Positions 1 to 50,285 of a DNA stretch of 64,000 nucleotides are shown in pieces (positions within the stretch are counted from its first letter, which is position 1; the number at the start of each line of letters is the position of its first letter). The notes beneath the pieces were generated by a model. It ran no database searches. It was not told where the DNA came from and saw nothing but the letters and a program-made list of their open reading frames with translations. Source of the stretch: Anaerohalosphaeraceae bacterium (GTDB lineage Bacteria; Planctomycetota; Phycisphaerae; Sedimentisphaerales; UBA12454); assembly GCA_021108375.1 (NCBI GenBank), contig JAIORA010000048.1:66977-130976 (forward strand). The letters run 5' to 3'. The position numbers were made by a program, and so were the translations under genes.

Positions 1-2299
1 TTTCGCCATTGGCATCATTAACATCAACAATATATTCCTCGCCTTTCCACCGCTTGAGCAGCCTCGGATAAACATTGCTCCATTTCAAATTGTCCGGAAA
101 AGGTGCATATCTCCTGTAGCCTGTGTACTCATCGTTTTCGCACTCCCACAGCAAATAAGGATATCTCTTCGCCCTGAAGGGTTCCATTACGAGCCGGTTG
201 TACGCATTTTGGCACTGCTGGCGCGTAGAAGCCACCTGGCCAAATATCGGATAAATCCGCGGTTTCAGTGTTTTGAGTTCACTCGGCTGTCGGCTGAAGT
301 AATCACTGCCAATTTGAGGATGGGCCTTATGTATCCACCGCCCGTACTTTTCCATTTGCGGCACAGCCAATTTGATATGCTCAACGGCAAGCTTGTGATA
401 TTTTTCGCTAAGCTGCCTCTCGGTTGTTTCGCTCATATTATTGTAGATAAGAGCAAAGTGGTAGTGGTGATAGAATCTGGTCAGGCCGGCAGTAGCTTTG
501 CCGAGCATCCAGAACCGCTCAAGAGTTTTATTTTTCGGACAAACGGCCATAGCTTTGGTTAGTTTCGCTTCGGCGTTGTCGGCTATTTTAATTGCTTCGG
601 TAAGTTTGAACTTCGACAATACCTGCTCAAGAGTTTTTTCGTTCACAGACAAAACATCGTTGGTCTGAGCAGTGGTATTGGTAGCGGTATAGCAATGTGT
701 CCTTTTGTCTTTTACAAAATTAAACATATGAAACCAATTGGTATTTTTCGACAAAATTATGAATGCATCGGTTAATTTGTATGTGTCTTTCAATGCATCA
801 GCCACATAAGGAGCAGCCTCATTACCAAACCTTTTTTGTGCCCATTTCAGCAAAAATTCGTAAGAGTCAAAATTGTATGGGTCCCAGGATATTTTATGTG
901 ATGCCAGCCTACTCGGCTCGTAAAGAACATCATCCTCAGCTTTCATTACCCTGATAGTAGGCTGACCTTTCATTCCCATCGCAGCGAGTTTCTCAAGCCG
1001 AGCTTTCAATTTCGGAGCTGTATAACAAAGTTGCGTTCTGCACGGCTGGTTAAGTTCCGGATGATGTGTATCCCAGCCAAAAGTCTCCATTCGAGGCATA
1101 TTTACAAACGGATTAAAATGGTCATTCCAGAGATAATCACTCCCCGGCGGAACGGTTACCTTTGACCAAAAACGAATGTCTTTGGGAAGTTTCTCTGCCA
1201 AGGCAAAAAACTTGTTAGTGTCCGCTTCCAGACCGTGCTTAAAAATGCCCCACGGACGAAGATAAATAACAGCGTCAGGAGTGCTTTCGTGCATCGCTTT
1301 ACGAATCAACATAAGATACTCGTAAAGCCTGTCCTCGTAAGACTGAGCTTCGCACTTTTCACAGCCGCAGGAAAAAATGCTTTGAGTGTGTTCGCCGATA
1401 TTGAGAAGTATTCCGCCAATATCATTAACATCAGCAAAAAGATTCTTGATTTTGTTGTACAACGCATCTTTGCTTGCCTGTTGAGACGGACATATAAAAG
1501 GATGCCACCACTCGGTTTTGCGATAAGGTTTCACTTCCGGACGGGCGGCGATAAACGAATCCCTGCCCCACCACGGCAGTGTTGGCTGATACATAAACAG
1601 ATAAACTTTGGCACCATAGGTTTTCGCTTCGGCAATTTTGTTTTTTAATCTTTCTCTGCGAACCATAACCTTGCGGATATGTTCGCTGCGGGTCTTCTCA
1701 TCGGGAAATATCTCAGGGGAGCTTTCATACAAAAACAAACTGCTGTCTCTACCATCTGGATTCTGCTGTTCGGGAGACCAGAAATTGACGAAATTGGCAC
1801 GCTTTTTAAGGTCGCCCTTACGAGTATCAAAGACAGGCCTGTCCCTGACATCAAATTTTTGTTTTTTTGATACCTCCCGCCCATCATCTTTAATTCGGTC
1901 GCGTAGTTCCATCAGGCCGTAAAGCAAGCCGACCTGAGTATTAGCTGTAATAAGAATTCGGCCATCTTCAAGGCTCTTGATATAAAAACCCTGCTCACCG
2001 AGCCATTGCGTTTCAAGTTTGGTTAATGATTTGAGAAGTGGAATAATATATTTATTATTCAGTCTTGCCGCAATAATAGAATTATTCACATCCTTGCTGC
2101 CAGGCATATCCGCAAGACTGCAAACACTGCCTATCTGCGATGCTGTTTCAGCTATACCGCCGATAGCATCAGTTTCTACAAAAACCTGTGTTTCAAGTGA
2201 TGCCGTAATTGCACCTAAAGCTGTCGCAATTCCGCCGAAAACAGTAATGCTCAAAAAAAAGACAGATAGACGAAACAGAACATTCCTACGCATTGTCAT
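1..2299 (-). CDS. Secreted glycoside-hydrolase-like protein, 3' end runs off window (absent from the ORF track)
   Basis: Hand translation from ATG 2299 (GGAG RBS upstream) is open to the window edge: MTMRRNVLFRLSVFFLSITVFGG... It has a signal-like N-terminus, a GH20/GH67-type N-terminal motif (EQGFYIKSLEDGRILITANTQVGLLYGLMEL), and FICPSQ...CGCEKC. Confidence 0.75.
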   Translation of the reverse strand, partial: MTMRRNVLFRLSVFFLSITVFGGIATALGAITASLETQVFVETDAIGGIAETASQIGSVCSLADMPGSKDVNNSIIAARLNNKYIIPLLKSLTKLETQWLGEQGFYIKSLEDGRILITANTQVGLLYGLMELRDRIKDDGREVSKKQKFDVRDRPVFDTRKGDLKKRANFVNFWSPEQQNPDGRDSSLFLYESSPEIFPDEKTRSEHIRKVMVRRERLKNKIAEAKTYGAKVYLFMYQPTLPWWGRDSFIAARPEVKPYRKTEWWHPFICPSQQASKDALYNKIKNLFADVNDIGGILLNIGEHTQSIFSCGCEKCEAQSYEDRLYEYLMLIRKAMHESTPDAVIYLRPWGIFKHGLEADTNKFFALAEKLPKDIRFWSKVTVPPGSDYLWNDHFNPFVNMPRMETFGWDTHHPELNQPCRTQLCYTAPKLKARLEKLAAMGMKGQPTIRVMKAEDDVLYEPSRLASHKISWDPYNFDSYEFLLKWAQKRFGNEAAPYVADALKDTYKLTDAFIILSKNTNWFHMFNFVKDKRTHCYTATNTTAQTNDVLSVNEKTLEQVLSKFKLTEAIKIADNAEAKLTKAMAVCPKNKTLERFWMLGKATAGLTRFYHHYHFALIYNNMSETTERQLSEKYHKLAVEHIKLAVPQMEKYGRWIHKAHPQIGSDYFSRQPSELKTLKPRIYPIFGQVASTRQQCQNAYNRLVMEPFRAKRYPYLLWECENDEYTGYRRYAPFPDNLKWSNVYPRLLKRWKGEEYIVDVNDANGE

Positions 2300-2370
2300 A
2301 AAAACTCCCAATGAAAATTATTATCGAACTTTGTGTGCGGCTCTCAATTTTGAAGGGTACAAAACCGATT

Positions 2371-3123
2371 TTACCAGAAATGGCGAGTTTTACCGCCATC
2401 ATAATGACGATCCGGGCTATCTGCCGTATCATTAAGCCGTTTCCAGAAAACATTGCCGCCGTTATGCAGCATAAGAGCTCCCTCGCGTTTTCTCATAGTA
2501 TGACTCCACGACCACCAAGGATAAATAGTTCTGGTCCAGTCGCTGGCCCAGTCTGACATCAGTGGAAAGTCTGACTTATCAACACTCCTTTTCGGCATTC
2601 GCTCTTTTTCTTTACGGTCGCGCCAATCTCCACCATCAGTGCCTGTAAAATTACCGAAGTAATTGTAGCCGATTGTGCCAACCTGACCCCAATCCGCCGT
2701 TGTGTTCTCCATTGTATGCACATTCGAGCAATACAGTGCTTTGTGATTTTTGATATATGATGAATAAAATGGGCTTACCCACTCTGAACCACCAGACAAT
2801 GCATTAATTTTGGACAGATGATAAGCGTGATGGGGATGTTTTTGTGCGGAACCTGTAATACTTTTCTCTGTTGTTCCCCCTATTTCGACTTCAACTATAT
2901 CGTGCGACGGATATTTCGTGTTATAATCACCTGCATATACCGTTAGAGCTAAGTGGCACTGATGCAGATTATTGCTGCAAATAACTCTTTTAGCCAACTC
3001 CCTTGCTCTTTGCAGTGAAGGCATCAAAATTGCCAAGAGCATAGCAATAATGGAAATAACAACCAAAAGCTCTACCAAAGTAAATGCCTTATACCCCCTT
3101 TTTTCGTGACTCAACATATCCAA
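2371..3123 (-). CDS. Prepilin-type N-terminal cleavage/methylation protein (planctomycete DUF1559-like)
   Basis: [42 protein letters not shown]. Confidence 0.9.
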
Positions 3124-3333
3124 AACTCCTTAATCGTCTTTAATTCCACTACGCCGTTAAGCATTAACCATTACGACTATATAAACCAAAAGGTCTGTCC
3201 TTTTTTTATATCAATAATAGCGAATTATAAATTTCCAAATACCGCTCCAGCCAAGGCGACCTGCTCATACAACTGATGAACCGGACGCCCTGACCAAAAA
3301 CAGCAATAACTTTACTCTTGCGCAAACTTCAAT

Positions 3334-4125
3334 TTAGCTGCGTCGGCGTTTCAAAACAAGCAAACTACCTAAACTAAGCAGTACCATTGTTGCAGGCTCA
3401 GGAACTATCTTAATATCATCGAAGTAGCCATAAATACTGTCGCTTCGGCCATAACCATAGACCCTGTCGAGTGAAGCACTGTCAGCATCATAGAAATCCT
3501 GATTCAGTGCAGTACTCCAGTCATCTGTTGAACCAGCTTCTCTGGCCTTGATGTCAAACTTTTTGGTTGAGTAGTCCAATGTCATCTCGAACTCATACCA
3601 GGTATCAGCCACAGCAGCCATTATCGTGGTGAAACCACTACCATCGTATATCTCGATGTTACCATTACCAGGATTTACCTGAATCCTGGCGGCCTTCTTG
3701 GCACTGTCGTCCATAATCATAAAGTAAGAATACCGGTTGCCGCTGTCGACTCGTATCGCGGTTTTCTGATACCAGGTTACTAAGTATTCACCTGTGTTGC
3801 CACCGTCAGCGAAGTCCAGCTTGGCATACTTTTCACTGGTGCCGGAACCGGTTAATCTGCCACACGCCGTGCCGCTGTAGGCCTCACCGCCGCCAACAAC
3901 TTGCTGGTAACTGGTATTATTCAGCCACTTGACCATTGAGGCCGGGTCGGGGTCGTTGTTACCGGCACCCGCATCAGCATCGCCCCATTCATGGCCTGTG
4001 TCCCAGGTACCTTCACCAGCACTGTTTGGCTCGAAGGTCGTATTGACCAACGCAGCACCTGCCGGTAATGCTACGCACATTACCACCATTAAAACAATTA
4101 ACTTTTTCATTTTCTTCGCCTCCAA
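3334..4125 (-). CDS. PEP-CTERM sorting domain protein
   Basis: Signal peptide (probable start MKKLIV); C-terminus VPEPATMVLLSLGSLLVLKRRRS. Confidence 0.92.
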   Translation of the reverse strand: MEAKKMKKLIVLMVVMCVALPAGAALVNTTFEPNSAGEGTWDTGHEWGDADAGAGNNDPDPASMVKWLNNTSYQQVVGGGEAYSGTACGRLTGSGTSEKYAKLDFADGGNTGEYLVTWYQKTAIRVDSGNRYSYFMIMDDSAKKAARIQVNPGNGNIEIYDGSGFTTIMAAVADTWYEFEMTLDYSTKKFDIKAREAGSTDDWSTALNQDFYDADSASLDRVYGYGRSDSIYGYFDDIKIVPEPATMVLLSLGSLLVLKRRRS

Positions 4126-4196
4126 AACTAAAAACTTTCAGACATTTTCTTCATCGCAACGCACGATGAATCTTAATGCTCAAGTAATTTAATAAA

Positions 4197-5102
4197 TTAA
4201 AAACATTCGTTATTGTAAGGGTCAGTGCAGGCCAGCCAGTTTTCAGCTAAAATAGCCATATCCTCGAAATCCACATAGCAGTCCTCGTTCAGGTCTCCTT
4301 TGGCATAGCCCCAATCGCCGCACTCGTATGTCGGCAAACCCTCTACCACTTTAATATCGTCAAAGTAGCCGTAAACCGTGTCCTTCGAAGCCTCACAATA
4401 TATACGGTCAAACGATACGCAGTTTGCATCGACAAAATCTAGGTCATCTAATGTACCCTGCCAAAATGAATTGCCTGCCTCTTTGACCCTGACATCAAAT
4501 TCCTTGGCCTGAAAATCAAGAACCATCTCGAATTCATACCAGACACGGTCAAGCATACCAGACATCAATGTTGCTGTTCCGCCGCCATAGGAAACCACAA
4601 TAGCATGCAGATCTTCACTCATAATCACTTTTACTGCCTCGTTGTAGGGGTCTGATTTATCTATAATCCACACGAAAGAGCTTCGGGAACCAGAAACCTC
4701 ACTTTGAGAGGCATTATACTGAAGCCAGGTCATTGTATAGACATCGTTGTAATCCCCCAATGTACCGAATTCCAGTTTGGAATACTTCGCGCCGCTACTC
4801 CTGCCTCTGAGCCAACCGCATTGGTCCCCTGAAATGGTAGTATCACTCGGACCAAACTGAGGATAGGTTGCATTTCTAATCCACTCTACTCCCGAACAGG
4901 GGTCAACTGCTCCACTGTATGGTTCGCTGGTTTGACGACCCCAACGAACACCATATTCATCATTGTCCCATGTCATTGGCCCGGCACTATCCACCTCAAA
5001 AGTCGTGTTGACCAGCACATCCCCATCGGCAGCATTTGCCACGCCGACAGCCAAAACAAGCATTCCTATTGTTACGCTAAATAATATAGCAAACTTTTTC
5101 AT
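4197..5102 (-). CDS. Secreted protein: one copy of the shared LVxTTFE domain plus dockerin/EF-hand-like tail
   Basis: Signal peptide; aligns by eye with 3334..4125; tail CGDWGYAKGDLNEDCYVDFEDMAILAENWLACTDP. Confidence 0.85.
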   Translation of the reverse strand: MKKFAILFSVTIGMLVLAVGVANAADGDVLVNTTFEVDSAGPMTWDNDEYGVRWGRQTSEPYSGAVDPCSGVEWIRNATYPQFGPSDTTISGDQCGWLRGRSSGAKYSKLEFGTLGDYNDVYTMTWLQYNASQSEVSGSRSSFVWIIDKSDPYNEAVKVIMSEDLHAIVVSYGGGTATLMSGMLDRVWYEFEMVLDFQAKEFDVRVKEAGNSFWQGTLDDLDFVDANCVSFDRIYCEASKDTVYGYFDDIKVVEGLPTYECGDWGYAKGDLNEDCYVDFEDMAILAENWLACTDPYNNECF

Positions 5103-5148
5103 TTTTACCTCCTTACGAAATTATAAAGAATATCTGTCTCATTTTTTT

Positions 5149-6726
5149 TTAGAACCTAACACAGTTTGCGTCATTGGGGTCGGAACATTCTACCCAATCC
5201 TGCGAGAAAGCCGCAAAATCTTTGAAGTCAACATAGCAGTCTTGGTTGAAGTCGCCTTCTTTGTAGCCATAACCACCGCAGCCATACAGCGAGACCTCAA
5301 AATCATCCCAATACCCATTGGCACCGGTCTGGTCAACTTTGCATTGTATCCAGTCGAAAGAATCAGAGATGTCAGCATTTCGCAAATACCCATCGACCAT
5401 ACCTTCCCATTTGGATTCGCCTAATTCCCTTACTTTGACATCAAATGTCTTATTTACGAAATTCAACTCTGCTTCAAAACCATACCAGGAGCCTGCGTTA
5501 TAATTGCTTAGCAGCGTTTTTGCTATCTTGCTTCCACCGATAGTGCCACAATTAACTGATATTTCCGTTGCCGCTCCGGTGTTATCGCTCCCCATAGTTA
5601 TCGCCAAGGCGATATTCGCCCAAGTCCCTGTATTCGGGCCAATGTCGCTACCAATAATCGTGCGTACATAGTTGTTCTTGGTTGAACCGGCATATTCGTA
5701 TTTCTGCCACCATTTCATAGTGTAAATACCGACATTGTTGCCATCGTCAAAGTTCAGCGCAACTACCGTTCCATAAGGAGAGGTGGCCGTACGCCAAATT
5801 TTACCTGCCGCTGAGGCATCGTGGGATGCGCCGGAAGCAGTTACAATACCATTTGCATCACCCTGAAAATCATACCATTGGTCGGTGCTGATTGGGTCGG
5901 GGTCGTTGCCATCGCCCCACAAGTCATCTGCAGGCCAGGTTCCAGCTCCGCCGCTGTTCACCTCAAAAGTCGTACCAACAAGGTCAATAACTCCGCCCGA
6001 CGGCAGTACCTGTACGGTAATATCATCAAAGAAACCGAAAATCTTATTTGATGCAGCCCGACAGTAGATACGGTCAAAAGAATCGCTGTCGGACGAAACA
6101 AAGTTTGCATCGTTTAACGTGCCTACCCAACTTACATCGTTTGCTTCCTTAGCTTTAATATCAAACTTCTTTGTCTGATAGTTCAATGTCAACTCAAACT
6201 CATACCAGGAATCATTTTTCATATTGCTCAATACTGTCGTAACTCCATCAGCAGTGTGAACCGAAATAGTATTGCCATCGGCATTCATAGTAACCTGTGT
6301 AGCCTCGTCGACATCATCATCGATAATCCACACATTGGAATGCCTATCTCCCGTATTCGAGTCTTGTATCTGATTGAGCTGATACCACTTTACTACATAA
6401 GTACCAGTTTTAGAGCCGTTACCGAATTCCAGCTTGGCATACTTGTTGCCGGTAACTCTTCCAGCCTGACCACCTTTCCAGACACGGCTTGTCGCAATGA
6501 TAGCCTTAGAGTTGTCATTTGCTACCCAGTTAATACCACTGGCAATATCCAGCTCGTCCCACACATCGCTTACAGATGTGTCCCATGTCTGGTAGCCGGC
6601 ACTTTCCTTTTCAAAGGTTGTTTTGACCAGATAGCCCCCCATAACAGGAACCACTGTCAAGCCCAGCAAGCACACAACAATAAATAAAATACCTGACTTT
6701 TTCATTTCAACCTCCTTCTGAATCAA
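5149..6726 (-). CDS. Secreted protein: two copies of the shared domain plus dockerin/EF-hand-like tail
   Basis: LVKTTFEKESAG and LVGTTFEVNSGG repeats; tail CGGYGYKEGDFNQDCYVDFKDFAAFSQDWVECSDP; probable start MKKSGIL. Confidence 0.85.
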   Translation of the reverse strand: MIQKEVEMKKSGILFIVVCLLGLTVVPVMGGYLVKTTFEKESAGYQTWDTSVSDVWDELDIASGINWVANDNSKAIIATSRVWKGGQAGRVTGNKYAKLEFGNGSKTGTYVVKWYQLNQIQDSNTGDRHSNVWIIDDDVDEATQVTMNADGNTISVHTADGVTTVLSNMKNDSWYEFELTLNYQTKKFDIKAKEANDVSWVGTLNDANFVSSDSDSFDRIYCRAASNKIFGFFDDITVQVLPSGGVIDLVGTTFEVNSGGAGTWPADDLWGDGNDPDPISTDQWYDFQGDANGIVTASGASHDASAAGKIWRTATSPYGTVVALNFDDGNNVGIYTMKWWQKYEYAGSTKNNYVRTIIGSDIGPNTGTWANIALAITMGSDNTGAATEISVNCGTIGGSKIAKTLLSNYNAGSWYGFEAELNFVNKTFDVKVRELGESKWEGMVDGYLRNADISDSFDWIQCKVDQTGANGYWDDFEVSLYGCGGYGYKEGDFNQDCYVDFKDFAAFSQDWVECSDPNDANCVRF

Positions 6727-6778
6727 AATAATTATTTAATAAAACACACAAATTCTTTTTGTACCGATTTTTTGCTAA

Positions 6779-7864
6779 TTACTTTTCTGTTATACTTATT
6801 TTCTTCTCTGACCGCACCTCGCCGGCTGATTGACGAATGATAAATTTGCTGGGGATTGCTATCTGCTTAGGCTCATCAATATCACGCTCTATTCCTTCCA
6901 TAAGCAGTTCAAAGGCAGAATTAACCATTTCCTCTACCGGCTGAGCAATTGTGCTAAGCGGCGGCTGGGAATATGCCATCGTACTTACATCATCAAAACC
7001 TACAATTGATATATCCTGCGGTACTCTTATGCCCATACGAGCCAGGGCCGAAGTCAAAAACAAGGCAAATTCACTTTGAATACATATAATCGCGGTACAT
7101 TCAGGATGGGACTTCAGGAATTTCTTTGTTTGCAAAAAAGCCAAATCAACATCAATGATGTGGCGAGTACCTTTATTGGCATAACTTTCATCGGTGCTAT
7201 ACAACCTATCCTGGCCTTTGCCGAAACCGTGCGATTCGATACTTTTATAGAATTCTATAAAACGCATATCTTTCTCCCAGCCTGGCCAACACATAGAAAA
7301 CATATAAATCTGACTGTGCCCAAGTCGATAAAGATGGTTTATCGCCTTTCTTATGCCAATGCTTACATCCTGGCATACCAACCTGTGGGAGGAATAGGCC
7401 GATTTGCCAAACAATGTCCCACTAAACAACACTGTCGGTACGGAAAATTTGAGCTTCGTTTGTATCTCTTTGACAGTCGCTTCCGGAAAAGCTCCCTTAA
7501 CAATGAGGCCATCCACGCCGCGTCCAATTAACTTATGTGCCCGCTTTACCGTTATATCAAGATTACCTTTGGTATGAGCAACATACACTTCATAGCCGGC
7601 ATTGTTGGCAAGCTCGTCCAGCTTCGCTTCCATAGTTGATGTTATCTCAAGAGATGGAGACCCCGCCAAAAAACCTATTGTCTGCGTCTTACCAAGAGAC
7701 AGACCTCTGGCTACTAAATTAGGCTTGTAATTCATTTCTTTTGCCAGTGATTTGATACGGTTACGTGTACTAATGGATATTTGGGAATCGTCCCGCAGTG
7801 CCCTGCTGACGGTACCACGTGAGATGCTTAGCTTTTCAGCGATAGAACTAAGAGTTGTTGCCAT
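6779..7864 (-). CDS. LacI-family transcriptional regulator
   Basis: TLSSIAEKLSISRGTVSRAL HTH, YKPNLVARGL, VPQDISIVGFDD, PPLSTIAQP. Confidence 0.95.
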   Translation of the reverse strand: MATTLSSIAEKLSISRGTVSRALRDDSQISISTRNRIKSLAKEMNYKPNLVARGLSLGKTQTIGFLAGSPSLEITSTMEAKLDELANNAGYEVYVAHTKGNLDITVKRAHKLIGRGVDGLIVKGAFPEATVKEIQTKLKFSVPTVLFSGTLFGKSAYSSHRLVCQDVSIGIRKAINHLYRLGHSQIYMFSMCWPGWEKDMRFIEFYKSIESHGFGKGQDRLYSTDESYANKGTRHIIDVDLAFLQTKKFLKSHPECTAIICIQSEFALFLTSALARMGIRVPQDISIVGFDDVSTMAYSQPPLSTIAQPVEEMVNSAFELLMEGIERDIDEPKQIAIPSKFIIRQSAGEVRSEKKISITEK

Positions 7865-7904
7865 TCTCCAATCCTTCCTTCACTTAAATAACCTGTTTGT
7901 CTAT

Positions 7905-7953
7905 TGCAACTGGTTGCGTATAGCATCGTAACCGGTTGCGCTAACAATGTCAA
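7905..7953 (-). promoter_or_regulatory. Sigma70 promoter with two LacI-type palindromic operators
   Basis: Minus strand TTGACA(7953-7948)-17 nt-TACGAT(7930-7925); palindromes TGCAACTGGTTGCG 7905-7918 and CGTAACCGGTTGCG 7927-7940. Confidence 0.75.
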
Positions 7954-8023
7954 GTGAAATAAACCGCAAATTTTAGAAAAATGTTTAAATCACCAAGAAA
8001 TGTCGCCCAACTCCTTTGTTTAC

Positions 8024-8063
8024 AAGATGTTAAGAGATACCAAGAGATGCTAAGAGATGTTAA
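8024..8063. repeat. 10-bp tandem repeat (AAGAGATGYT-like, about 4 copies)
   Basis: aagatgtt aagagatacc aagagatgct aagagatgtt aa. Confidence 0.7.
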
Positions 8064-8394
8064 ATGTCAAAGCAACCACTCTTCGGAAGGGTCAACAGTC
8101 CTTCAAAACAAGTGGGGAATTGTTTTTTTTCTGGAAAGGGGCGGCTTACAACCACCCCGTAGCCTTAGCCAGCAATGTAAGCCTTCACAGAAATTTTAAA
8201 AAGTTTAAAAAATCCAAAGAAAAAAGTAGCACGCCGATTTAGCTTCTGTTACAAACAAACGATTAATCGTGATTCACAATTCTCTTGTCAAATTCGGAGA
8301 TTTGCCGGAAGTCGATTTCGACAAAGCTTCTAAAAACGATATTACCAAGGCCTGGAATATAATCTTTTCCTCTGAGTAGCTCACCATCTAACTT

Positions 8395-8450
8395 AGATTT
8401 CTGCTTTCGCAAGAATGACAAATCTGCGTAATTTGTGAAATCTGTGTCTA
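8395..8450. repeat. Small repeat mosaic (ATGACA-ended hairpin plus CACAGATT-type repeat)
   Basis: agatttctgctttcgcaagaatgaca followed by aatctgcgtaatttgtgaaatctgtgtc; both module types recur elsewhere in the window. Confidence 0.7.
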
Positions 8451-8689
8451 AAAAAACAGACTTCAAAACTCCAGACATGTTGCAGAATACGCAAAAAAAT
8501 GGCCAAGATAGAGTAGTTTGCGCAAAATTTGCGCTATACATAGAGCTACCCTTAATTTCATCTTAAATTTTCTTGCAATACTGGCCGGTTTTATGTAGGG
8601 TGGGTGAAAATTTGCCGGAGCGAGTTTGCTGGCTTTTTTTGTTATTGCTCTTTGGCATAATTGGTGTAATTCATTGTAAATAAACAATT

Positions 8690-8779
8690 GGAGAGGTGCC
8701 CGAGTGGCTTAAGGGAACGGTTTGCTAAACCGTCGTATGGATACAATCCGTACCGGGGGTTCGAATCCCCCCCTCTCCG
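8690..8779 (+). tRNA. tRNA-Ser(GCT)
   Basis: GGAGAGG/CCTCTCC acceptor stem, ACGGT-TTGCTAA-ACCGT anticodon arm, long variable arm, GGTTCGAATCC. Confidence 0.97.
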
Positions 8780-9481
8780 TTTCTTTTTTATTCGCCAAAA
8801 TCACGTCTATAAGCTCTTGTAGTTCAGGCACTTGCGAATTGTTTACTATTTTAGACTGCCCTGTTGCCCTTAAGTTGCCCTTATTTGGAGCAGGTACAAT
8901 TTCAACTTCATGGCTTTTAGCCAGTTCCATCATAGCGTTCTGGCTGTCCTCATCATGCAAATAATAGTAAAGGTCAAGGATGTCTGAGGAACTATGTCCA
9001 AGCCAAGCCAGTGCTTTGCGGTAAGCAACACGGTGGTTGGCACACAGACTTGCAAAGTAAAGTGATGTCTGAATGAATGCAACTTGTATTGGGTTGGATT
9101 TTCGAATTTACATTCTGCACATAAAATTTTAATGTGTTTTAACAGTTTCCTTTCGTTAATAGCAGGGAGAAGAACTCCTTTATTCTCTCTATATGATTTC
9201 AACAATTCAGCGATTTGAGGATGTACAGGCACAAATCTATCCTCTTTATCCTTGGTTGTACCGTTTGAGCCGCCTCTTCGGATATGAATCATAGTGAATT
9301 GTTTTTCATCTTTCACAATATCTTCCCTCCGAAGCTGCTCAACTTCACCTACACGCAAGCCGGCATATCCCATCAAGGCAAATGCGATTTTTTCCTGCCC
9401 ATCTGCTAATTGAATTAAAGATTCAATCTGGCTGATGGTAAAGCAAGGTTGAGGCTTGGCCTTTGCCTTTGGGAATGACAC
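8709..9481 (-). pseudogene. Tyrosine recombinase/integrase, 5'-truncated and frameshifted
   Basis: AGLRVGE and HSFRH in one frame, WLGHSSSDILDLYYY in another. A tandem AAAGT-AAAGT at 9054-9063 sits at the shift. The N-terminus is replaced by an IS3 fragment. Confidence 0.88.
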
Positions 9482-9618
9482 TGCTCTGTGACGAGTTTTG
9501 CTGCCTGTAACTTGAACTCCTTGCTGTACTTTCGATACTTTGCCATTTTAGGACACTCCTTAATTAATTGGGACATTATAACCTCTGATCAAGTGTCCGT
9601 AAATCGTTCAGCACCTCA
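9481..9618 (-). mobile_element. IS3-family left end and OrfA fragment
   Basis: End TGAGGTGCTGAACGATTTACGGACAC; AAGGAG RBS; ATG 9546 gives MAKYRKYSKEFKLQAAKLVTEQ, then the frame runs into the integrase remnant. Confidence 0.75.
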
Positions 9619-9620
9619 GT

Positions 9621-9800
9621 TGGACAAAATTGTCTGATTGGCTTGATGACGCTCCTGATATCGACATAAAAGAGGACGTTGTAGGGTTAGGGAGTTATGA
9701 CAAAACTCTGACTGTACTTTTTACAACAGAAGCAATTGACTATGAGTCAACGCGGAAGGTAAAAATAATTGTCGCTGATCAAGAATCAAATTTAATATAG
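9621..9800 (+). pseudogene. 3' gene fragment cut by the IS3 end (possibly an ImmA/IrrE-like C-terminus)
   Basis: Open frame WTKLSDWLDDAPDIDIKEDVVGLGSYDKTLTVLF...* begins at the IS boundary; the family call is from recalled motif similarity only. Confidence 0.4.
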
Positions 9801-9883
9801 GTATAGACTTAATGAAATGATTGCTGGGAACAAATAGTTCAAAGTTATGCGAACACATATTTTGTTTCTAAATTATTTGCTTC

Positions 9884-10018
9884 TCAGTACGCTTTGATTA
9901 ATTCGTCAATGAGTTCCTGTTTACGTTTTTCCTGCGGTGTTTGTTTGGCCATAGTAAATACCTTTCAAAAATAGGTTAACAAATCTATGACCATTTACAC
10001 AGTTTATTTCACACCCTC
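9884..10018 (-). mobile_element. IS256-like left end and transposase stub
   Basis: End GAGGGTGTGAAATAAACTGTGTAA; GAAAGG RBS; ATG 9952 gives MAKQTPQEKRKQELIDELIKAY*. Confidence 0.6.
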
Positions 10019-10069
10019 ATGTGGGTTCCAGCCTTTTTCATACTTGCTACAAACCTTAATGATCTATCC

Positions 10070-10153
10070 ATCTTCTGGAATGGATATTATTTTGATGAGG
10101 AGACTAAGAACTATTATTTGCGGAGCAGATACTACTCCCCACTTGAGAGGAAA
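10070..10153 (+). pseudogene. RHS repeat-associated core fragment
   Basis: IFWNGYYFDEETKNYYLRSRYYSPLERK matches the RHS core signature GyyyDxETglyYxraRYYdP. Confidence 0.7.
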
Positions 10154-10182
10154 TGTTCAATTATAAGGGGTACCTACCGTTA

Positions 10183-10725
10183 TCAATTATCCCTTTTAGT
10201 AAAAATCAACTGTATCGGATTGGTCTCTATCATTTTGCTGTTAGGAGGAGCAGCACCCTTGAGCCAAGTGTAGTTAAGCCAATTAGCTTTCCATGCCTTT
10301 CCATTTTCGGAAATATTACCAATAAAACTATCTCTACTATTACCCTCTAAAACACCATTTGGTAGTTTCATATGAAACAAATCTAATATTACCTCCACAC
10401 AAAGTTTACGTTCAGCAGAATCATAGTAGTTTTCCACCGGCCCTAATGCAAAAACAGCAAATGTTCCTTCTTCAGAACCTTCAAGCTCTTTGCTGCCTTC
10501 TTCAATTGTCATAGGCCCTCCTAGTGGATGGATTAGTTTAGAAATTTCACCATCTTCTTCAATCTTAAAAGCCCAGTTATGTTCTTTTGATTGCCAAATA
10601 CCAACCGGATATTCTAGGTATGAGCTTGTTCCCACTGAGACATTATGATGGCTACCATAAGGAGTACGACAACCAATTAATTGTAGAAATATAATTATGA
10701 ATAAGACAACACATGATAATCTCAT
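10183..10725 (-). CDS. Hypothetical lipoprotein
   Basis: Hydrophobic N-terminus with LIGC lipobox; abuts the upstream gene. Confidence 0.75.
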   Translation of the reverse strand: MRLSCVVLFIIIFLQLIGCRTPYGSHHNVSVGTSSYLEYPVGIWQSKEHNWAFKIEEDGEISKLIHPLGGPMTIEEGSKELEGSEEGTFAVFALGPVENYYDSAERKLCVEVILDLFHMKLPNGVLEGNSRDSFIGNISENGKAWKANWLNYTWLKGAAPPNSKMIETNPIQLIFTKRDN

Positions 10726-12123
10726 TTAATTTGTCCAGAAGTTATAATCATCATCTCCATCCTCAGTAATATCTAGAGGACATTCATCAACAGTCCCTTG
10801 ATTAAAAAATGTATTGAAAATTTGAAGGTCAACATTACTAACGCGAAAAGGGCCTTCTTTATGATGATTGAGGTCGGCGCAAATACCATTATTTATTTGC
10901 ATAAGTTCTTCATCAGTTTTATTAAAAGCCTGTAGAAACACTTGAAGGTCAACATTACTAACTCTAAACGGGCCGTTTTGGATACCGTCGATATCGCCTC
11001 GGCAATTATATCTATAACACCAACAGGAAGGCTTATCCCATTCAAGCCAGTCCCAAAAACTTGGATTGCAACTACTCATACAGGTATCAGGATTTAGTAC
11101 CGTTATTGTTGCATTTGTGTATGCATGGTATGGTATATTGCAACATACATTTTCAAGAAAAACATCACCATTAATCACCCATATTGAGTAATTATAATCA
11201 GTTTCTTTATCTAATTCAACACTAAAGGTAGTATTATATATGTATGTTTCAGGTTCTATGGAATCGTTAATATCGGTATCTGATTGTGAAAGACCAATGA
11301 TAGCATCAGTTGTTTCACTTGGTGTATTTGAATTAATAATGCTATTATATATTTTTAAAATGGCATCGTTATTAGTAATTGCAATAGTTGCAGAGGCTCC
11401 GCCATTCTTATCTCCAAGTTCTGCAGAAATAACACATGAGGTAACATTTACATCTAAATTACCATCTAATTCCAAGGCAAATGTATCGCACATATAATCA
11501 TAACCAGAAGTTACAATGTCAGTATCTATTATTGTATGAATGGATCTTATTGGGTCATATATTCCATCCTTAATTCCTAAGCCATATTCATTACCATTAA
11601 TGAGACATTTCGATATATTGGTATTATTGGTTTCTTTGAAAAGAACGGTATGACCAAAACCTTCACCGGATTGTTCTCCAGAATTGCCGTTTTTGCCACG
11701 TAGAAAACAACAGTTTTCCAAGCTAATGTCATTGATTTCTGAAGCTAAAACTGAACAGCGATCATCTGGAACAGGCTTTTCGTAACGGTCATGTATGACT
11801 GTCAAGTTTTTTAATACACACCCATTTCCTAGTTTTATTGTGAAATCATTTGGGCTTTGTTCATTAGGGTCTTGGATGATAACTGACTCTTTGTCACCTA
11901 TACCTTCCAAAGTTATGTTATTTTTGACTGACAAGTCAACATATTCTTCATAAGTTCCCGGGTAGATTGCTATAGCATCACCGTTTTGTGCATTTTGAAG
12001 GGCCTCATTTATGTCAATATAACTATTTGGGACATTCTGGGTTCCGTCAACTATCAATGTATCCCCAAAAAGAAATTGACTACAGAACACTGCAACAGAT
12101 AAGATTGCAATAATTTTTTTCAT
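10726..12123 (-). CDS. Secreted beta-helix (pectin-lyase-fold-like) protein with Cys-rich duplicated dockerin-like C-terminus
   Basis: Signal peptide; YIDINEALQNAQNGDAIAIYPGTYEEYV; KPSCWCYRYNCRGDIDG and two copies of GPFRVSNVDLQ. Confidence 0.8.
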   Translation of the reverse strand: MKKIIAILSVAVFCSQFLFGDTLIVDGTQNVPNSYIDINEALQNAQNGDAIAIYPGTYEEYVDLSVKNNITLEGIGDKESVIIQDPNEQSPNDFTIKLGNGCVLKNLTVIHDRYEKPVPDDRCSVLASEINDISLENCCFLRGKNGNSGEQSGEGFGHTVLFKETNNTNISKCLINGNEYGLGIKDGIYDPIRSIHTIIDTDIVTSGYDYMCDTFALELDGNLDVNVTSCVISAELGDKNGGASATIAITNNDAILKIYNSIINSNTPSETTDAIIGLSQSDTDINDSIEPETYIYNTTFSVELDKETDYNYSIWVINGDVFLENVCCNIPYHAYTNATITVLNPDTCMSSCNPSFWDWLEWDKPSCWCYRYNCRGDIDGIQNGPFRVSNVDLQVFLQAFNKTDEELMQINNGICADLNHHKEGPFRVSNVDLQIFNTFFNQGTVDECPLDITEDGDDDYNFWTN

Positions 12124-12176
12124 AATATTCCTCTTGAAACAAAGTGCGGTTAATATTTTTCAAATACTGTCAAGGT

Positions 12177-12205
12177 TGTAAACGGTGGAGTAAAAGTGTC
12201 CCACC
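12177..12205 (+). mobile_element. Possible isolated IS21-like terminal sequence
   Basis: TGTAAACGGTGGAGTAAAAGTGTCCCACC resembles IS21-family ends as recalled; no transposase is present. Confidence 0.35.
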
Positions 12206-39875: not shown

Positions 39876-40688
39876 GTGCCTGTGGGAAAAGAACATAGCG
39901 CCAAAGCTTTTACTCTAATAGAACTGCTTGTTGTAATTTCCATAATTTCAGTGCTGCTGGCCTTGCTGATGCCGGTGCTTTCGTCTGCCAGAAGCCGAGC
40001 CAGGCTTGTTGTCTGCGCATCTAATCTGCATCAGAATTATATCTCTCTCGATACCTACGCAAAAGAGAATAACGACTGCTGGCCGAGAACCGATTACGGC
40101 TCACACACAAATCAGTTTTACCGAATCAATTCACCCGATGTACACGGGCCTTTATATTATCTGTGGCTGGCCGGATTTGTCGAAGAGCCAAAGACCTGGT
40201 ATTGTCCTGGGAGCAGCGAAAAACCTGAACAAACCTGGCAGCAAAACGGCAACGGTAATTACAAACCTGTAAGCTCAATGCACGGGGCCGGCTATCAGTT
40301 CCGAATGAGGCTCGCCTTTTACAACTCTTCCGGCCGAAAAACGGTTTATAAATCCGCGAGAAAAAAGAATTGCTACGGACAATTGCGGCCGGACAATTTC
40401 AGAAAACTTGTCCTCTGGAGCGATGCCTTCGGACATTCCGAAAACAGAATCATAAACCACAAAACCGGCCAATGGAATGTGCTGTTTAACGACTCCTCCG
40501 TAAAAACCAGAGACGATAAAAGAAACATCATACCACAACTTAATCTTTCGTGGTCACAGGCCGGCGATTGGCGGCTGCTCCTGCCAAACGGCAAGAAAGA
40601 TTCATACCGCCATATGGCGTTTTTGTGGCATTTTTTCGATAAAAACAGTTGGGAAATAGAAAATAAAAGCCCGCGTTACAAGCCTTAA
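39876..40688 (+). CDS. Stand-alone prepilin-type protein
   Basis: [39 protein letters not shown]; HKTGQWNVLFNDSSV resembles the H-X9-DG motif. Confidence 0.9.
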   Translation: MPVGKEHSAKAFTLIELLVVISIISVLLALLMPVLSSARSRARLVVCASNLHQNYISLDTYAKENNDCWPRTDYGSHTNQFYRINSPDVHGPLYYLWLAGFVEEPKTWYCPGSSEKPEQTWQQNGNGNYKPVSSMHGAGYQFRMRLAFYNSSGRKTVYKSARKKNCYGQLRPDNFRKLVLWSDAFGHSENRIINHKTGQWNVLFNDSSVKTRDDKRNIIPQLNLSWSQAGDWRLLLPNGKKDSYRHMAFLWHFFDKNSWEIENKSPRYKP

Positions 40689-43112: not shown

Positions 43113-46100
43113 CTATTTGATGTCCGGTATCACCTGATAGGCGATGACTCTGACCTTATCAGATTTGTTTTTTACGCCGCTTCTGTCGAGGATGGCCAGT
43201 ACCCTTTTCTGCGGGCCTTCGGCACCGAGCCTTACCAATATATACGCTGTGAAAATATCACTGCGAACGGTAACAAGGTCGCTGATGCGAGCAAAAATCA
43301 GATTCTGTTCCTCCAAATCGTCAACATAGCCATCGTAACGCTCCCTGTTTGTGCTGAGGTCGGGGTAGCCGAACTGGTCAACACCATCTATGCCGTAATA
43401 ATCAATGCGGTAATCGATGTCGCCAGAGCTATCTGTTATAACAGCGGCCAATTCGCCAATCGAGCTAAAGCCTGGTGCCTCTGATATGTCAGTAATATCA
43501 GTTGCGCTGAATCGGTTGGAATAATTAATTGGGGCATCTTTCTTATCACGGAAAGCGACAATTGCCTCTGCTAATTCATTGTCGCGATTAAACCTGCTAT
43601 CGGTTACCCAAGGCAGTTGCTTTATAACACTAATCGGTGCGGTATTGATATTGACCCTGCCCTTGATTGCGGTTTTAGTCGCATCATCTATTGCCGGGTC
43701 AAAAAGGGTTATGTACTGAAACATTTTCTGCATAACGCGGTCGTGCATATCAATTCGTGGAAAGTCATCACTGGCTCTGTTAGCAACTTCTCTGTCTCCA
43801 GCTGAAATTTGATAATCCACATTCCCCTCAAGATAATTTGTCTTGCGGAACAGTTGGGCTATCTCGCCAACATTATCAAACCCACCGTGATAAGGCCTAA
43901 CGGCATACAGATGATTGCCTCTGTAAGTTAGACCAACAGTGTGGTTATATTCAAAATCATTCTCGTGGCCAAGAGTAGGGCTGATTGGGACTGGAAGGCC
44001 TAAGAGAGTAGCATTCGTTTCGCCCCAGAGACGTTTGAGAATCAATTCCCATCTGATGTCCCGCTGGTAACTGGCAAAGCTGTCGAAACCGGCAACAGCA
44101 GTAGCTGTGTCACAAAAATTAAATGCCAAACCATCCATCTCATCGACGAGAATAGGGACTCCGTCAACATCACGATACAGCCTGAATGTTGTACCAGCAT
44201 TAAATACCATCGGAGCAATTAGAACTTCTACCGTTTCAGGCGAAGAATTCCAAGTTTCAAAACTCCAGACGCTTCCCTTACTGTAATGAGCAGGGTTTGC
44301 CGGATTAAGTCGTCCGTCAACTCTCCAGAAATATTCTGTATCTATAGGTAACCCACCTGGATCATAGGATTGAGCAGCTTGGCCAGTAACAGGAGGACTG
44401 ACCAGTACGCCGAGTGGAACCGTCGTTGTAGCGTTCTCGACATCACTTGGATTTTGGCCAAAATAAACATCATAGCTATCCGAGACAACCGGGGTGCCGA
44501 CCGCATTATAACCGAGGAATATCTCGCCCCATCTGAGAACAATATCCGGGTCAACGCCAGTAGCGCCATCTTCCGGCGAATCGGAAAAATCAACTTGATT
44601 GGCCAGCGGCGCAAGCGGGTCTTCAAAAATATGCACATAATATTCGCCGCCGCCATCGTTAAAATGAGCCGCATTTATAGGAATAATCTTATCAGCTACA
44701 GGCCCACCCAAATTATCTTTAATATCCGAAATTTCCAATGTCCAATCACCATCTGGGAAATCATCATTAGCCCGGAAATTTTTGCGTAGCTCAATCGCAT
44801 ACGATTTATGAATAACGAGTGGTGGGTTTACGGGGTCTTCTGTAAAATTACGGGTAATTTCAGAGAGATAAATGAACGGCCTTTCAAACCCGTAATACTT
44901 GTCCGAGCCGTCGGCTATCGTAGTAACCTCTGCGTCACCATCTGTGCCATCAATAAGGTTAGCAACAATCTGAGCGAGCCAGGCTTTTCTATCGGCCTTT
45001 TCAGCGGGAGTTAAATAGGTTAAACCATCTATATCTATGCCGAGCAGCATCTTGTCGTAAAGGTCCTGTGCGGCAGTGGCCCCGCGGGTTGCTTCTATAC
45101 TAAACATCTTATCGCCATCCGGGTCGATAACACGGTCGAGATTTATCGTTGTAAAAAGATGCCGTCTGTCCCAATTCGTATCGGTATTATCAGTGATTCT
45201 GCGTCCCCAATCGCCAAGTCCCCAGTTGGTACTCCCTTTGTAATACCCGCCGGGGTTGCCGTAATGGTCAAAGGTCTCATCGAAAATCGGTTCGGATTCA
45301 ATTCTCGCTACCGCCAGATTGTCGAGACAGTACCTGTACCGCAGTTCAAGCTCATCGGTAATATCATACGGGTCGTAAAGGCCGTTAGGCAAGCCACTAT
45401 TCCAAACCATTTCCTGGTTATATGTCGGCCAATCAACATCATCATCAAAAACACCCCCATAACGTGCGACTTGGAAACTTTCAAGTTCATTGTCAACATT
45501 GCCATCAGCATCTTCATCTTTAAATAGCCCCGCCAGATTAATCTGCATCTGCGTTGAGCCGTCAATCTTATTTTCCTCAAGACTGCTTGCATCAAACTGA
45601 TATGCGGTATTGATATTCAGCAGGCCGGAATTGTCGATAATCCGGATAGCGGCGTATAAAGGCTTGCCCTTTTCCGAACGGATATTATCCAGCAGAATCC
45701 ACTTGGCATCAGCTATGCCATCACCATCAGCATCAGCGTATATGTTAATAGGCGCACCACTCGCATCCAAGTCAGAAGGATAAAATTCCGGATACTGACG
45801 AATAACTTGAGATACTCCCGGCGGGTCAACATCAACGTTTTGCCAGGCATAACTATTGTCCTTCAAAAAGCCCGTAACATCGGAAATCTGCCGCCAGTAA
45901 TAACTCCCGCTATCCTCGTAAGGCTCAATCGAAGCGAGAAACGCGTTGTTAACATCGGGATAATCATAATAATCGAGATTAGTAACATCATCTGCTACGC
46001 CGGGACTGTCGAGAACCAACTGCTCGCTGATAAGCTCAATAACGGAATCAATGGCGCAATCGAGCGTTTTGGTATCGGCAACAGCAGAAGTCGAGAGATT

Positions 46101-46241
46101 GTCCATTCGCGAGGTCATAATGAACATAACGCCCACAATCGAAAGAAGAACCGTCAGCACGACCGTCAATATCAGAGCCGAGCCTTTTACATTGCCTTTG
46201 GCTTTTATCTTGTAAGGTTCCATTTTTCTATCCCCTTTCAA
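43113..46241 (-). CDS. Large GspK/PilX-like minor pilin with HhH module and inserted Fn3-like domain
   Basis: KGSALILTVVLTVLL (no E5); NINTA twice; ELAEAIVAFRD..FSSIGEL; TVRSDIFTAYILV; YDVYFG..YFWRVD..VWSF. Confidence 0.8.
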   Translation of the reverse strand: MKGDRKMEPYKIKAKGNVKGSALILTVVLTVLLSIVGVMFIMTSRMDNLSTSAVADTKTLDCAIDSVIELISEQLVLDSPGVADDVTNLDYYDYPDVNNAFLASIEPYEDSGSYYWRQISDVTGFLKDNSYAWQNVDVDPPGVSQVIRQYPEFYPSDLDASGAPINIYADADGDGIADAKWILLDNIRSEKGKPLYAAIRIIDNSGLLNINTAYQFDASSLEENKIDGSTQMQINLAGLFKDEDADGNVDNELESFQVARYGGVFDDDVDWPTYNQEMVWNSGLPNGLYDPYDITDELELRYRYCLDNLAVARIESEPIFDETFDHYGNPGGYYKGSTNWGLGDWGRRITDNTDTNWDRRHLFTTINLDRVIDPDGDKMFSIEATRGATAAQDLYDKMLLGIDIDGLTYLTPAEKADRKAWLAQIVANLIDGTDGDAEVTTIADGSDKYYGFERPFIYLSEITRNFTEDPVNPPLVIHKSYAIELRKNFRANDDFPDGDWTLEISDIKDNLGGPVADKIIPINAAHFNDGGGEYYVHIFEDPLAPLANQVDFSDSPEDGATGVDPDIVLRWGEIFLGYNAVGTPVVSDSYDVYFGQNPSDVENATTTVPLGVLVSPPVTGQAAQSYDPGGLPIDTEYFWRVDGRLNPANPAHYSKGSVWSFETWNSSPETVEVLIAPMVFNAGTTFRLYRDVDGVPILVDEMDGLAFNFCDTATAVAGFDSFASYQRDIRWELILKRLWGETNATLLGLPVPISPTLGHENDFEYNHTVGLTYRGNHLYAVRPYHGGFDNVGEIAQLFRKTNYLEGNVDYQISAGDREVANRASDDFPRIDMHDRVMQKMFQYITLFDPAIDDATKTAIKGRVNINTAPISVIKQLPWVTDSRFNRDNELAEAIVAFRDKKDAPINYSNRFSATDITDISEAPGFSSIGELAAVITDSSGDIDYRIDYYGIDGVDQFGYPDLSTNRERYDGYVDDLEEQNLIFARISDLVTVRSDIFTAYILVRLGAEGPQKRVLAILDRSGVKNKSDKVRVIAYQVIPDIK

Positions 46242-46272
46242 ATCTCAACCTACTGTCTTCTGTCTTCTGTAT

Positions 46273-47175: not shown

Positions 47176-47198
47176 AAGCCGGCGACTGTGTCCTTATT

Positions 47199-47945: not shown

Positions 47946-47949
47946 ATTT

Positions 47950-48810: not shown

Positions 48811-48825
48811 TCTATCTTCTGTCTT

Positions 48826-49332
48826 CTACCTGTTCGTTATATCGTCTTGCTTTTGTTCAGCAGTACTGGAATTCGCATCCGGCCCGCTCGACCAGACCAG
48901 CGGAAAGTTATCTTCATTTGCCTTGGAATAGCTGTAATACAGTTCTTGGCCCCACGGGTCAATAATTTCAAGGATACCATCACCATCTACATTGATAACC
49001 AATGTCGAATCTAATTCATCAATGGCTTTTTTCGCCTGCGGTACGAGCGAGAGTCGGTAATATATTTCTTCAATATCCGAATCGCAATTGGGAGAATAGC
49101 CACCAGCCAAATCATAAAACTTTCCGTGAAAATCATAGTACTGCTCAAGGGCGGTATCTATAATTACTAATTGGGCTTTTGCCATATCAAGTTTTGCACG
49201 CTTATCTACGGACTGACTGAGAGAAAAAATCCCTGCCGCAAGGATAGCGATTACCACTACCGTTACCAGAATTTCCACTATCGTAAAACCGAATTGGCTG
49301 TGTAAGTTTCTCATTTTACTTTCCATCAACAC
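48826..49332 (-). CDS. GspG-like pseudopilin
   Basis: GFTIVEILV; DPWGQELYY; WSSGPD; DDITN. Confidence 0.85.
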   Translation of the reverse strand: MLMESKMRNLHSQFGFTIVEILVTVVVIAILAAGIFSLSQSVDKRAKLDMAKAQLVIIDTALEQYYDFHGKFYDLAGGYSPNCDSDIEEIYYRLSLVPQAKKAIDELDSTLVINVDGDGILEIIDPWGQELYYSYSKANEDNFPLVWSSGPDANSSTAEQKQDDITNR

Positions 49333-50175: not shown

Positions 50176-50245
50176 ATTTTTACGCCTTTTATTTCTAACA
50201 CCTTAAAAAACTTTTAAGACTTGAGCCAGGCATCACAAATGACTC

Positions 50246-50272: not shown

Positions 50273-50285
50273 TTTTTAAATCTGC

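Follow-up and report, generated by a model that had tools for sequence, protein, structure and literature searches.

A recurrent sugar-locus cassette with two exchanged C-terminal tails and a pilin-like neighbour in an Anaerohalosphaeraceae bacterium: a candidate surface module for glycan capture

How a bacterium might seize a complex glycan at its surface without a SusC/D pair is the question raised by a locus in the genome of an uncultured Anaerohalosphaeraceae bacterium (GCA_021108375.1; 2.36 Mb in 55 contigs, 93% complete), of which we analysed a stretch of 64,000 nucleotides, referred to below as the window (G000:C5:66977-130976). Among listed sequencing runs, only one of marine-sediment DNA, possibly its source, contains the stretch in full, and no RNA run contains it. 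Six genes, all co-oriented on the minus strand, span its positions 2-7864, and three adjacent ones encode secreted proteins that share a domain but end in two different C-terminal tails, namely PEP-CTERM in one and a dockerin-like tail in the other two. An earlier note on this DNA had proposed that they form a glycan-capture apparatus. The answer that we favour, with a confidence that is moderate and somewhat better than even, is that the cassette serves to capture an acidic, pectin-like glycan at the surface without SusC/D, following a recurrent design. The locus itself is best explained as a cassette for polysaccharide utilisation, of which the genome would have at least three paralogous versions, every one provided with a LacI-family regulator of its own, and its core as a capture triad consisting of a ligand binder with PEP-CTERM, one or more dockerin-tailed paralogues of it and a DUF1559 pilin-like protein.

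The shared domain is about 215 aa long and occurs in four homologous copies. The open reading frame (ORF) of 525 aa (5149-6726, minus strand) contains two of them (6001-6633 and 5281-5985) followed by a tail with four cysteines (5152-5286), the 301-aa ORF (4197-5102, minus strand) contains one (4335-5018) followed by a single-repeat dockerin-like tail of the same kind (4200-4334), and the 263-aa ORF (3334-4125, minus strand) contains one (3394-4053) followed by PEP-CTERM (about 3337-3405). The earlier note had taken the four repeats to be homologous, which is borne out by sequence comparison: the three N-terminal copies are 39-40% identical, and the fourth, which follows the N-terminal copy in the 525-aa protein, gives BLASTP E-values of 1e-19, 3e-22 and 5e-18 against them. 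Nine residues of the domain (T, F, E, W, D, W, L, W and Y) are invariant, a pattern that we take to be unlike the signatures of GH16 or PL7. A profile of the domain matches 19 ORFs in this genome, with 27 domain matches counted, while it was found in none of 24 genomes of the same family and 16 genomes of the same order yielded one marginal match (E 1.8e-4). Among 1.84 billion representative proteins there are 206 matches at E ≤ 0.001, 43 at E ≤ 1e-10 and 23 at E ≤ 1e-30. No Pfam or NCBIfam model exceeded its cut-off on the domain, the best being PF22585, with 19.8 bits (also 15.0) against a cut-off of 27 (E 7.8e-4).

A model of the domain from the 301-aa protein, built on an alignment of 21 copies (mean predicted local distance difference test score, pLDDT, 87.2; predicted template modelling score 0.89), is a ConA-like beta-sandwich, so that the predicted fold is of the lectin or carbohydrate-binding module (CBM) type. 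The structure that it resembles most closely is the accessory domain of BT_1020 (5mqs_A 414-614, Z 18.5, root-mean-square deviation 2.5, 173 residues aligned; Foldseek against 5mqr, E 8.9e-9). Second in rank is a sialidase domain (Z 15.2); GH131, GH16, alginate lyases and lectins come next at Z 13-15, and the neighbours also include sialidase lectin domains, lectins of the legume and ERGIC types and ConA-fold lyases acting on alginate or glucuronan. The known family closest to the domain is therefore the sialidase-like CBM (PF22585, the BT_1020 accessory domain), which is the best structural match and a weak sequence match, with the differences that the copies described here fall below the curated cut-off and form stand-alone secreted proteins provided with an anchor tail.

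The presence of alginate and glucuronan lyases, GH16 and GH131 among the structural neighbours, together with the enzymatic character of the rest of the locus, would also fit the three proteins being not binders but small lyases or hydrolases with the ConA fold, comparable to PL7, PL14, GH16 or GH131. We consider this very unlikely: the top match leads the next by 3 Z units and is an accessory domain without catalytic function, and, as is usual for CBMs, the domain can be repeated two or three times in tandem and is found on the flanks of real catalytic cores. In this genome, copies lie N-terminal to a pectate-lyase core (core against PDB 9buj, E 4.6e-34) and flank the core of a glycoside hydrolase (GH)-like enzyme on both sides in proteins of 1346-1569 aa; in view of these fusions the domain behaves as a carbohydrate-binding module.

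The same associations guide what can be said about the substrate. Downstream of the GH-like gene of the locus, where the contig continues outside the window, lie a 456-aa pectate lyase (PDB 9buj, E 2e-37) and then a 1569-aa protein. According to a published account, BT1020 is an enzyme that degrades rhamnogalacturonan II and acts on pectin (PMC13501991), which fits the pectate lyases seen here. Our best guess is thus that the substrate would be an acidic, uronate-rich, pectin-like glycan, since a pectate lyase is encoded in the locus, pectate lyases of this genome carry the domain in fusion, and the structure nearest to that of the domain is part of an enzyme that degrades pectin. The family of the GH-like enzyme is uncharacterised; the N-terminal 770 of its 926 aa are encoded at 2-2311 (minus strand), where the gene exits the window (the whole gene is L001:14508-17288), and it has a weak GH67N match. 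The profile of its family reaches GH84 NagJ at E 1.6e-7 and GH115 at E 0.002, with GH20 and GH67 weaker, while a PDB sequence search with the single 926-aa protein, or with the 1569-aa protein, returned nothing at E ≤ 0.01. Only 17 members of the family were found at E ≤ 1e-10 in 5.8 billion clusters; this genome has 14 paralogues, some of them flanked by the lectin-fold domain and by dockerins.

Having established what is carried, we turn to the tails that carry it. The 263-aa protein is a regular member of the PEP-CTERM proteins (PF07589, 22.5 bits against a cut-off of 20.7; TIGR02595, 22.6 against 16), and the genome has a single exosortase (PF09721, 192.7 bits; C1:290639-291424). In the 301- and 525-aa proteins, a tail of 45 aa begins where PEP-CTERM would, directly after the last strand of the domain, so that the description in the earlier note of a single Cys-bracketed, EF-hand- or dockerin-like tail at the equivalent position proved accurate. 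Invariant among 12 such tails are the four cysteines, a D-x-N-x-D...D loop (D14, N16, D18 and D25), a tryptophan and a proline. The best PDB sequence matches of the tail are a cellulosomal dockerin (2y3n_B, E 6.6e-4) and EF-hands. Like the type I dockerin (PF00404), it combines a calcium-loop motif with a helix and is found at the C-terminus of secreted enzymes, but it has one repeat instead of two, has four invariant cysteines and stays below the Pfam cut-off (12.7 bits against 22.9); PF00404 is touched by six of the 12 tails, in every case below the cut-off, the best of the 12 at E 0.0051. The 67-position 'GC-type dockerin' model NF041540 gave no match on the 301- and 525-aa proteins at E ≤ 1, its five matches in the genome lying elsewhere. 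Canonical two-repeat dockerins above the Pfam cut-off were observed in the same genome at L002:5996-10108 (31.9 bits) and G000:C1:248621-251818 (28.0 bits).

The two tails were called interchangeable in the earlier note, and they have indeed been exchanged repeatedly in evolution. On a maximum-likelihood tree of 49 domain copies, inferred quickly with IQ-TREE, accounting for the tail label takes 12 changes and for the PEP label 11, and the well-supported branches alone force at least seven and at least six changes, respectively. The PEP-CTERM copy of the window is sister to the last domain of a 1573-aa ORF of the same locus, which corresponds to the 1569-aa protein (Shimodaira-Hasegawa-like approximate likelihood ratio test 97). 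Alternative C-terminal anchors on one cargo domain are familiar from the 'choice-of-anchor' families of NCBI. The present case differs from what is known of PEP-CTERM and exosortase systems in that the alternative anchor is a folded half-dockerin, not a second membrane-spanning sorting signal, and in that both anchor forms stand side by side as paralogues in one locus.

As judged from profile matches, the four-Cys tail is an order-wide module found on many kinds of cargo, not one special to this sugar locus. Its profile finds 6-128 matches in each of the 41 family and order genomes searched, 43 of them in this one. The cargo of 17 further tail-bearing ORFs in this genome includes GLUG, LamG with Ig, S9 peptidase, alpha/beta hydrolase, a PD40 propeller, a beta-helix, chondroitinase-B-like proteins, CBM96/CBM9 and GDPD, while several have no Pfam domain. 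In 33 ORFs located by regular expression, the tail is C-terminal in 27, of which 19 have a single repeat lying 25-36 residues from the end and eight have the tail about 58-66 residues from the end; it is internal in the remaining six, for example ahead of a GDPD catalytic domain, and for that reason it is a self-contained domain and not strictly a terminal signal.

These observations bear on whether the tail could be a sorting signal, comparable to the C-terminal domains of the type IX secretion system or to PEP-CTERM itself, that is recognised and perhaps removed by an export or attachment machine, the two tails then representing two routes for the same cargo. Its C-terminal position in most ORFs, its tens of copies per genome in all 41 relatives, its attachment to unrelated cargo, its placement in this locus at exactly the junction used by PEP-CTERM, the repeated swaps and the lack of a detected cohesin would all suit a sorting signal. 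We nevertheless regard this as unlikely, since the tail can be internal, it is most similar in sequence to true dockerins and EF-hands, canonical two-repeat dockerins coexist with it in the genome, and a folded four-Cys module with a calcium loop is unlike known cleaved signals. The earlier note suggested that the tail is a second sorting or docking signal; it does replace PEP-CTERM at the same junction, but the module is order-wide and may be internal. A docking role is the reading that we prefer. A cohesin-dockerin assembly, the 'Planctosome', has been proposed for other Phycisphaerae (PMC6461901). In this genome, 93% complete, a search with the cohesin model PF00963, which divergent cohesins would escape, returned nothing at E ≤ 1.

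The next question is whether the arrangement recurs, and it does so both within the genome and outside it. The order LacI, tail, tail, PEP, prepilin and GH-like gene is repeated on contig C1, with identities to the window genes of 51% for LacI, 49% for the prepilin and 54% for the GH-like gene, and again on C6, where lacI is divergently oriented, the prepilin is 52% and the GH-like gene 59% identical; a more distant version of the cassette, with a DUF6259/LamG protein and a sodium:solute (SSF) symporter, is present on C8. When motifs are counted irrespective of the domain, a PEP-CTERM ORF and a tail ORF both lie within 3 kb of eight of the 26 prepilin-motif ORFs, giving eight triad loci in the genome; random placement, tried 1000 times, produced 0.31 such cases on average and never more than 4. 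In four other cassettes, the cargo of which is not matched by the domain profile, the PEP and tail proteins are again paralogous to each other (40, 54, 47 and 52% identity, E 4e-44 to 2e-83), and in two further ones they are not.

Relatives were sampled by taking the best tail match of each of 20 genomes with 7 kb on either side, regions thus being chosen on the tail alone. A PEP-CTERM ORF was found in 8/20 regions, a prepilin in 8/20 and all three elements in 5/20, and the PEP and tail proteins were paralogous in 7/20, that is, in seven of the eight regions having a PEP ORF; these counts are lower bounds, because seven of the regions end at contig ends and the regular expressions miss variants. 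A search for related loci with a seven-row alignment of the domain returned one locus, on a Phycisphaerae contig from a metagenome-assembled genome (L006), with the same gene order: LacI (46% identical), a PEP-CTERM form of the domain, a prepilin that resembles that of the window only at its N-terminus, and a GH-like gene at the same place (61% identical). There is no tail-bearing copy of the domain in L006, so the core of the design looks like the PEP-CTERM binder plus the prepilin, with the tail paralogues added to it.

One of the eight triad loci is under the control of vitamin B12 and is found on the contig of the window, about 11 kb before the window starts, where a cobalamin riboswitch (RF00174, 84.9 bits; L001:3249-3490) stands directly upstream of a PEP-CTERM protein with a DUF4465 domain, a dockerin-tail protein and a DUF1559-like prepilin (L001:3249-6742 = G000:C5:55248-58741). 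DUF4465 domains bind vitamin B12, according to a recent paper (PMC13398666). Vitamin B12 is imported, not degraded, and is served by the same triad; chiefly for that reason the design is read as one for capture or uptake and not for secretion alone.

What the third member of the triad might do is harder to decide. The DUF1559-type, pseudopilin-like prepilin of the window (2371-3123, minus strand; 250 aa) has a class III leader with alanine at -1 and glutamate at +5 and scores above the cut-offs of PF07963 (29.4 bits against 21.2), TIGR02532 (21.8 against 16.3) and PF07596 (28.2 against 23.3), the last of these matches covering only profile positions 1-47 of 268. Five full-length relatives are known to our searches, at 47-60% identity, two of them being the paralogues beside the C6 and C1 cassettes; beyond these five, it shares only its N-terminal helix, with more than 1500 proteins. 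A structural model of mean pLDDT only 60 has a confident N-terminal helix of 51 residues (16-66) followed by strands, and the seven best matches of this low-confidence model are all type IV pilins (Z 4.2-6.0), which is consistent with a pilin fold. Its position is kept in the three paralogous loci and in the syntenic L006. It thus resembles the DUF1559/GspG-like prepilins of Planctomycetota and Verrucomicrobiota in its class III leader, its glutamate at +5, its conserved hydrophobic helix and, in the low-confidence model, a pilin-like layout, and differs from them in that its globular part defines a small subfamily and in having alanine at -1.

This last feature is shared within the genome. 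The protein is one of 16 DUF1559-like prepilins, 11 of which have alanine instead of the canonical glycine at -1, against none of ten pilins in machine operons, a count read from the N-termini that includes both the prepilin described here and another DUF1559-like one of the window; cleavage of such prepilins may therefore be different, slow or absent. The genome has one prepilin peptidase (PF01478, 35 bits). The other DUF1559-like prepilin of the window (39876-40688, plus strand; N_methyl E 1.6e-6) has no PEP-CTERM or tail ORF flagged beside it.

Could the prepilin, then, be neither a filament subunit nor a part of an uptake route, but a cargo-specific type II pseudopilin serving secretion, or a periplasmic binding protein anchored in the inner membrane? 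Its NCBIfam matches are to GspG-type pseudopilins, in the N-terminal part only, one of its relatives is labelled 'DUF1559 family PulG-like putative transporter', and the skew towards alanine at -1 relative to the machine-operon pilins points the same way. A preprint on a verrucomicrobium notes that an alginate locus includes a pulG-like pseudopilin, one that has 67 paralogues, and suggests that alginases are exported by type II secretion (10.64898/2026.01.22.701064). On the other hand, the B12-riboswitch cassette of the same design points to import, and the prepilin is retained in L006, where there is one secreted partner only. We hold this explanation to be doubtful, though to be taken seriously. 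Within the capture reading that we prefer, the division of labour between tail and prepilin can be refined: the tail is near-identical on unrelated cargo whereas the globular parts of the prepilins vary, so that the tail more likely binds a common receptor than the neighbouring prepilin, and the prepilin itself more likely recognises cargo or ligand, as far as can be judged from sequence comparison.

The earlier note went further and had the prepilin loaded on machinery encoded at 43-58 kb. There is a type II secretion / type IV pilus gene set at 43113-58097, comprising three T2SSE ATPases (two PilB/GspE-like and one PilT-like), one GspF-like T2SSF protein and five N_methyl proteins, so the reading of these genes as pilus or secretion machinery was correct. 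The assignment of the prepilin to this particular machine is unsupported, because at least six such machines exist: the genome has six secretins and 12 T2SSE ATPases distributed over at least six sites, the secretins are all on other contigs, with no Pfam secretin on the contig of the window, and what connects the prepilin with the set is only that both lie within the same 64 kb. The set is followed by proteins of 300 and 1042 aa without a Pfam family.

Neither is a conventional transporter apparent. As the earlier note had observed for the window, Pfam matches to transporters are absent from the locus, including its continuation on the contig; a profile search found no SusD anywhere in the genome, and its three TonB-dependent receptors are all on contigs other than that of the locus, so the SusC/D-free character claimed for the system is upheld. 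A comparison with the polysaccharide utilisation loci (PULs) of Bacteroidota is instructive in this respect. As in those loci, a substrate-specific regulator, surface glycan binders and degradative enzymes would be combined in one co-oriented locus, here judging from the genes alone, and several paralogous loci per genome each have their own regulator. In contrast to a Bacteroidota PUL, no SusD was found in the genome and this locus has no TonB-dependent receptor, the binders would be held by PEP-CTERM or a dockerin-like tail and not by a lipid anchor, and a pilin-like gene occupies a conserved position.

Control of the cassette appears to begin with the LacI-family repressor (6779-7864, minus strand), the first gene of the co-oriented set, with an N-terminal helix-turn-helix (PF00356, E 2.6e-10) and a sensor domain (PF13377, that is, Peripla_BP_3, E 2e-27, with Peripla_BP_1 also matched). 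Two 12-bp palindromes of the form GCAACCnGTTrC (7906-7917 and 7928-7939, minus strand), 22 bases apart, overlap a promoter-like site at 7925-7953, the best one ahead of lacI, and are a candidate operator pair for the repressor. In the window and 16 loci the LacI promoter is the sole place where the palindrome occurs; of 100 shuffled sequences, 17 also attained four matches, and the pair is silent on co-regulation of the genes downstream. That LacI, the prepilin and the GH-like gene are co-oriented with the repeat proteins agrees with the earlier note, and the gaps between the six genes, in the order from LacI to the GH-like gene, are 52, 46, 71, 210 and 59 bases. The true start of the 525-aa ORF is likely the ATG at 6705, giving 518 aa, since AGGAGG lies five bases ahead of it.

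Taken together, these elements allow a mechanism to be proposed. The N-termini of the three lectin-fold proteins, read by eye as a basic and then a hydrophobic leader, look like Sec signals, so Sec would export them. The single exosortase would, going by what is known of the family, handle the PEP-CTERM copy and keep it on the envelope, while the one- and two-domain tailed proteins would be held at the surface by their calcium-loop, disulfide-braced half-dockerin plugging into a putative generic receptor. The ConA-like domains would bind an acidic, pectin-like glycan, as the pectate-lyase fusions and the neighbouring genes suggest, and the bound glycan would be presented to the enzymes that bear the same domain. 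The pilin-like protein may couple captured ligand, or protein export, to a type II secretion / type IV pilus machine, a role to which its conserved adjacency points, and LacI would repress the set until the inducing sugar arrives.

Several points weigh against this interpretation. The tail is generic, whereas the prepilins differ from locus to locus in a fast-diverging globular part, which speaks against a simple lock between tail and prepilin; with no cohesin detected, the tail is without a known partner. The triad is frequent but not obligatory, as among the 20 tail regions sampled in relatives 12 lack a PEP-CTERM ORF and 12 a prepilin, and the motif counts, obtained from regular expressions, are approximate. 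A single operon is not demonstrated, because scans of positions 1-8800 performed no better than shuffles, yielding 13 promoter sites against a shuffle mean of 16.6 and eight terminators against 8.4. The model of the prepilin is poor, and the fold modelled for the lectin-like domain, which it has in common with GH16, PL7 and GH131 enzymes, means that the domain may be catalytic. The glycan-capture apparatus proposed in the earlier note is supported in part, by the lectin/CBM-type fold of the cargo domain and by its use as a module on pectate lyases and around GH-like cores; the tail, for its part, does not belong specifically to this sugar locus.

PEP-CTERM systems have classically been tied to exopolysaccharide production, and the cassette could accordingly serve adhesion or the building of a matrix in biofilms or flocs, as proposed for many PEP-CTERM proteins, instead of nutrient capture. 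Lectins would be able to cross-link such a matrix. This is highly improbable in our view, given that the cassettes adjoin catabolic regulators of the LacI type, lyases and GH-like genes and that one paralogous locus includes a sugar symporter; nutrient capture remains the preferred reading.

On its upstream side, the locus is followed in the window by a tRNA-Ser (8689-8780, plus strand), a truncated phage-type integrase (8930-9481, minus strand) and a stretch of low GC content (0.36-0.40), all within 8000-12200. The low-GC stretch encodes a 465-aa protein with a repeated C-terminal motif and no Pfam family. This region is likely the remnant of an integrated element, which bounds the locus.

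A literature search whose scope was articles without their supplements found nothing joining 'dockerin' with 'PEP-CTERM' or 'DUF1559' with 'PEP-CTERM', and no description of the triad. Three families without a model in the curated libraries searched emerge from the analysis, namely the lectin-fold domain, the four-Cys half-dockerin and the GH-like family with its 14 paralogues in this genome. Genes for pilin-like proteins of the DUF1559 type, which have no function assigned, run to tens in a genome, and the rule that PEP-CTERM and dockerin-tailed neighbours are mutual paralogues can be checked over hundreds of genomes.

According to an earlier study, planctomycetes take up whole polysaccharides, and dextran is bound to pili-like fibres that emerge from crateriform structures (PMC5394234). 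A broader reading of the triad, which we consider decidedly unlikely, would make it the signature of a general uptake route past the outer membrane, without SusC/D or TonB, across Planctomycetota and Verrucomicrobiota. In such a route surface binders would pass their ligand (a glycan here, vitamin B12 in the cassette nearby) to a DUF1559 pilin specific to each cassette, which would sit at the end of a retractable fibre or be built into it, and the fibre would draw the ligand into the periplasm; if this were true, the proteins of the triad would be the molecules behind the polysaccharide-binding fibres of planctomycetes. Independently of that, the locus offers a compact, testable set consisting of a lectin-fold binder in two anchor forms, a pilin-like neighbour and enzymes, and its gene layout, which recurs in this genome and in relatives, may show how such bacteria seize complex sugars.

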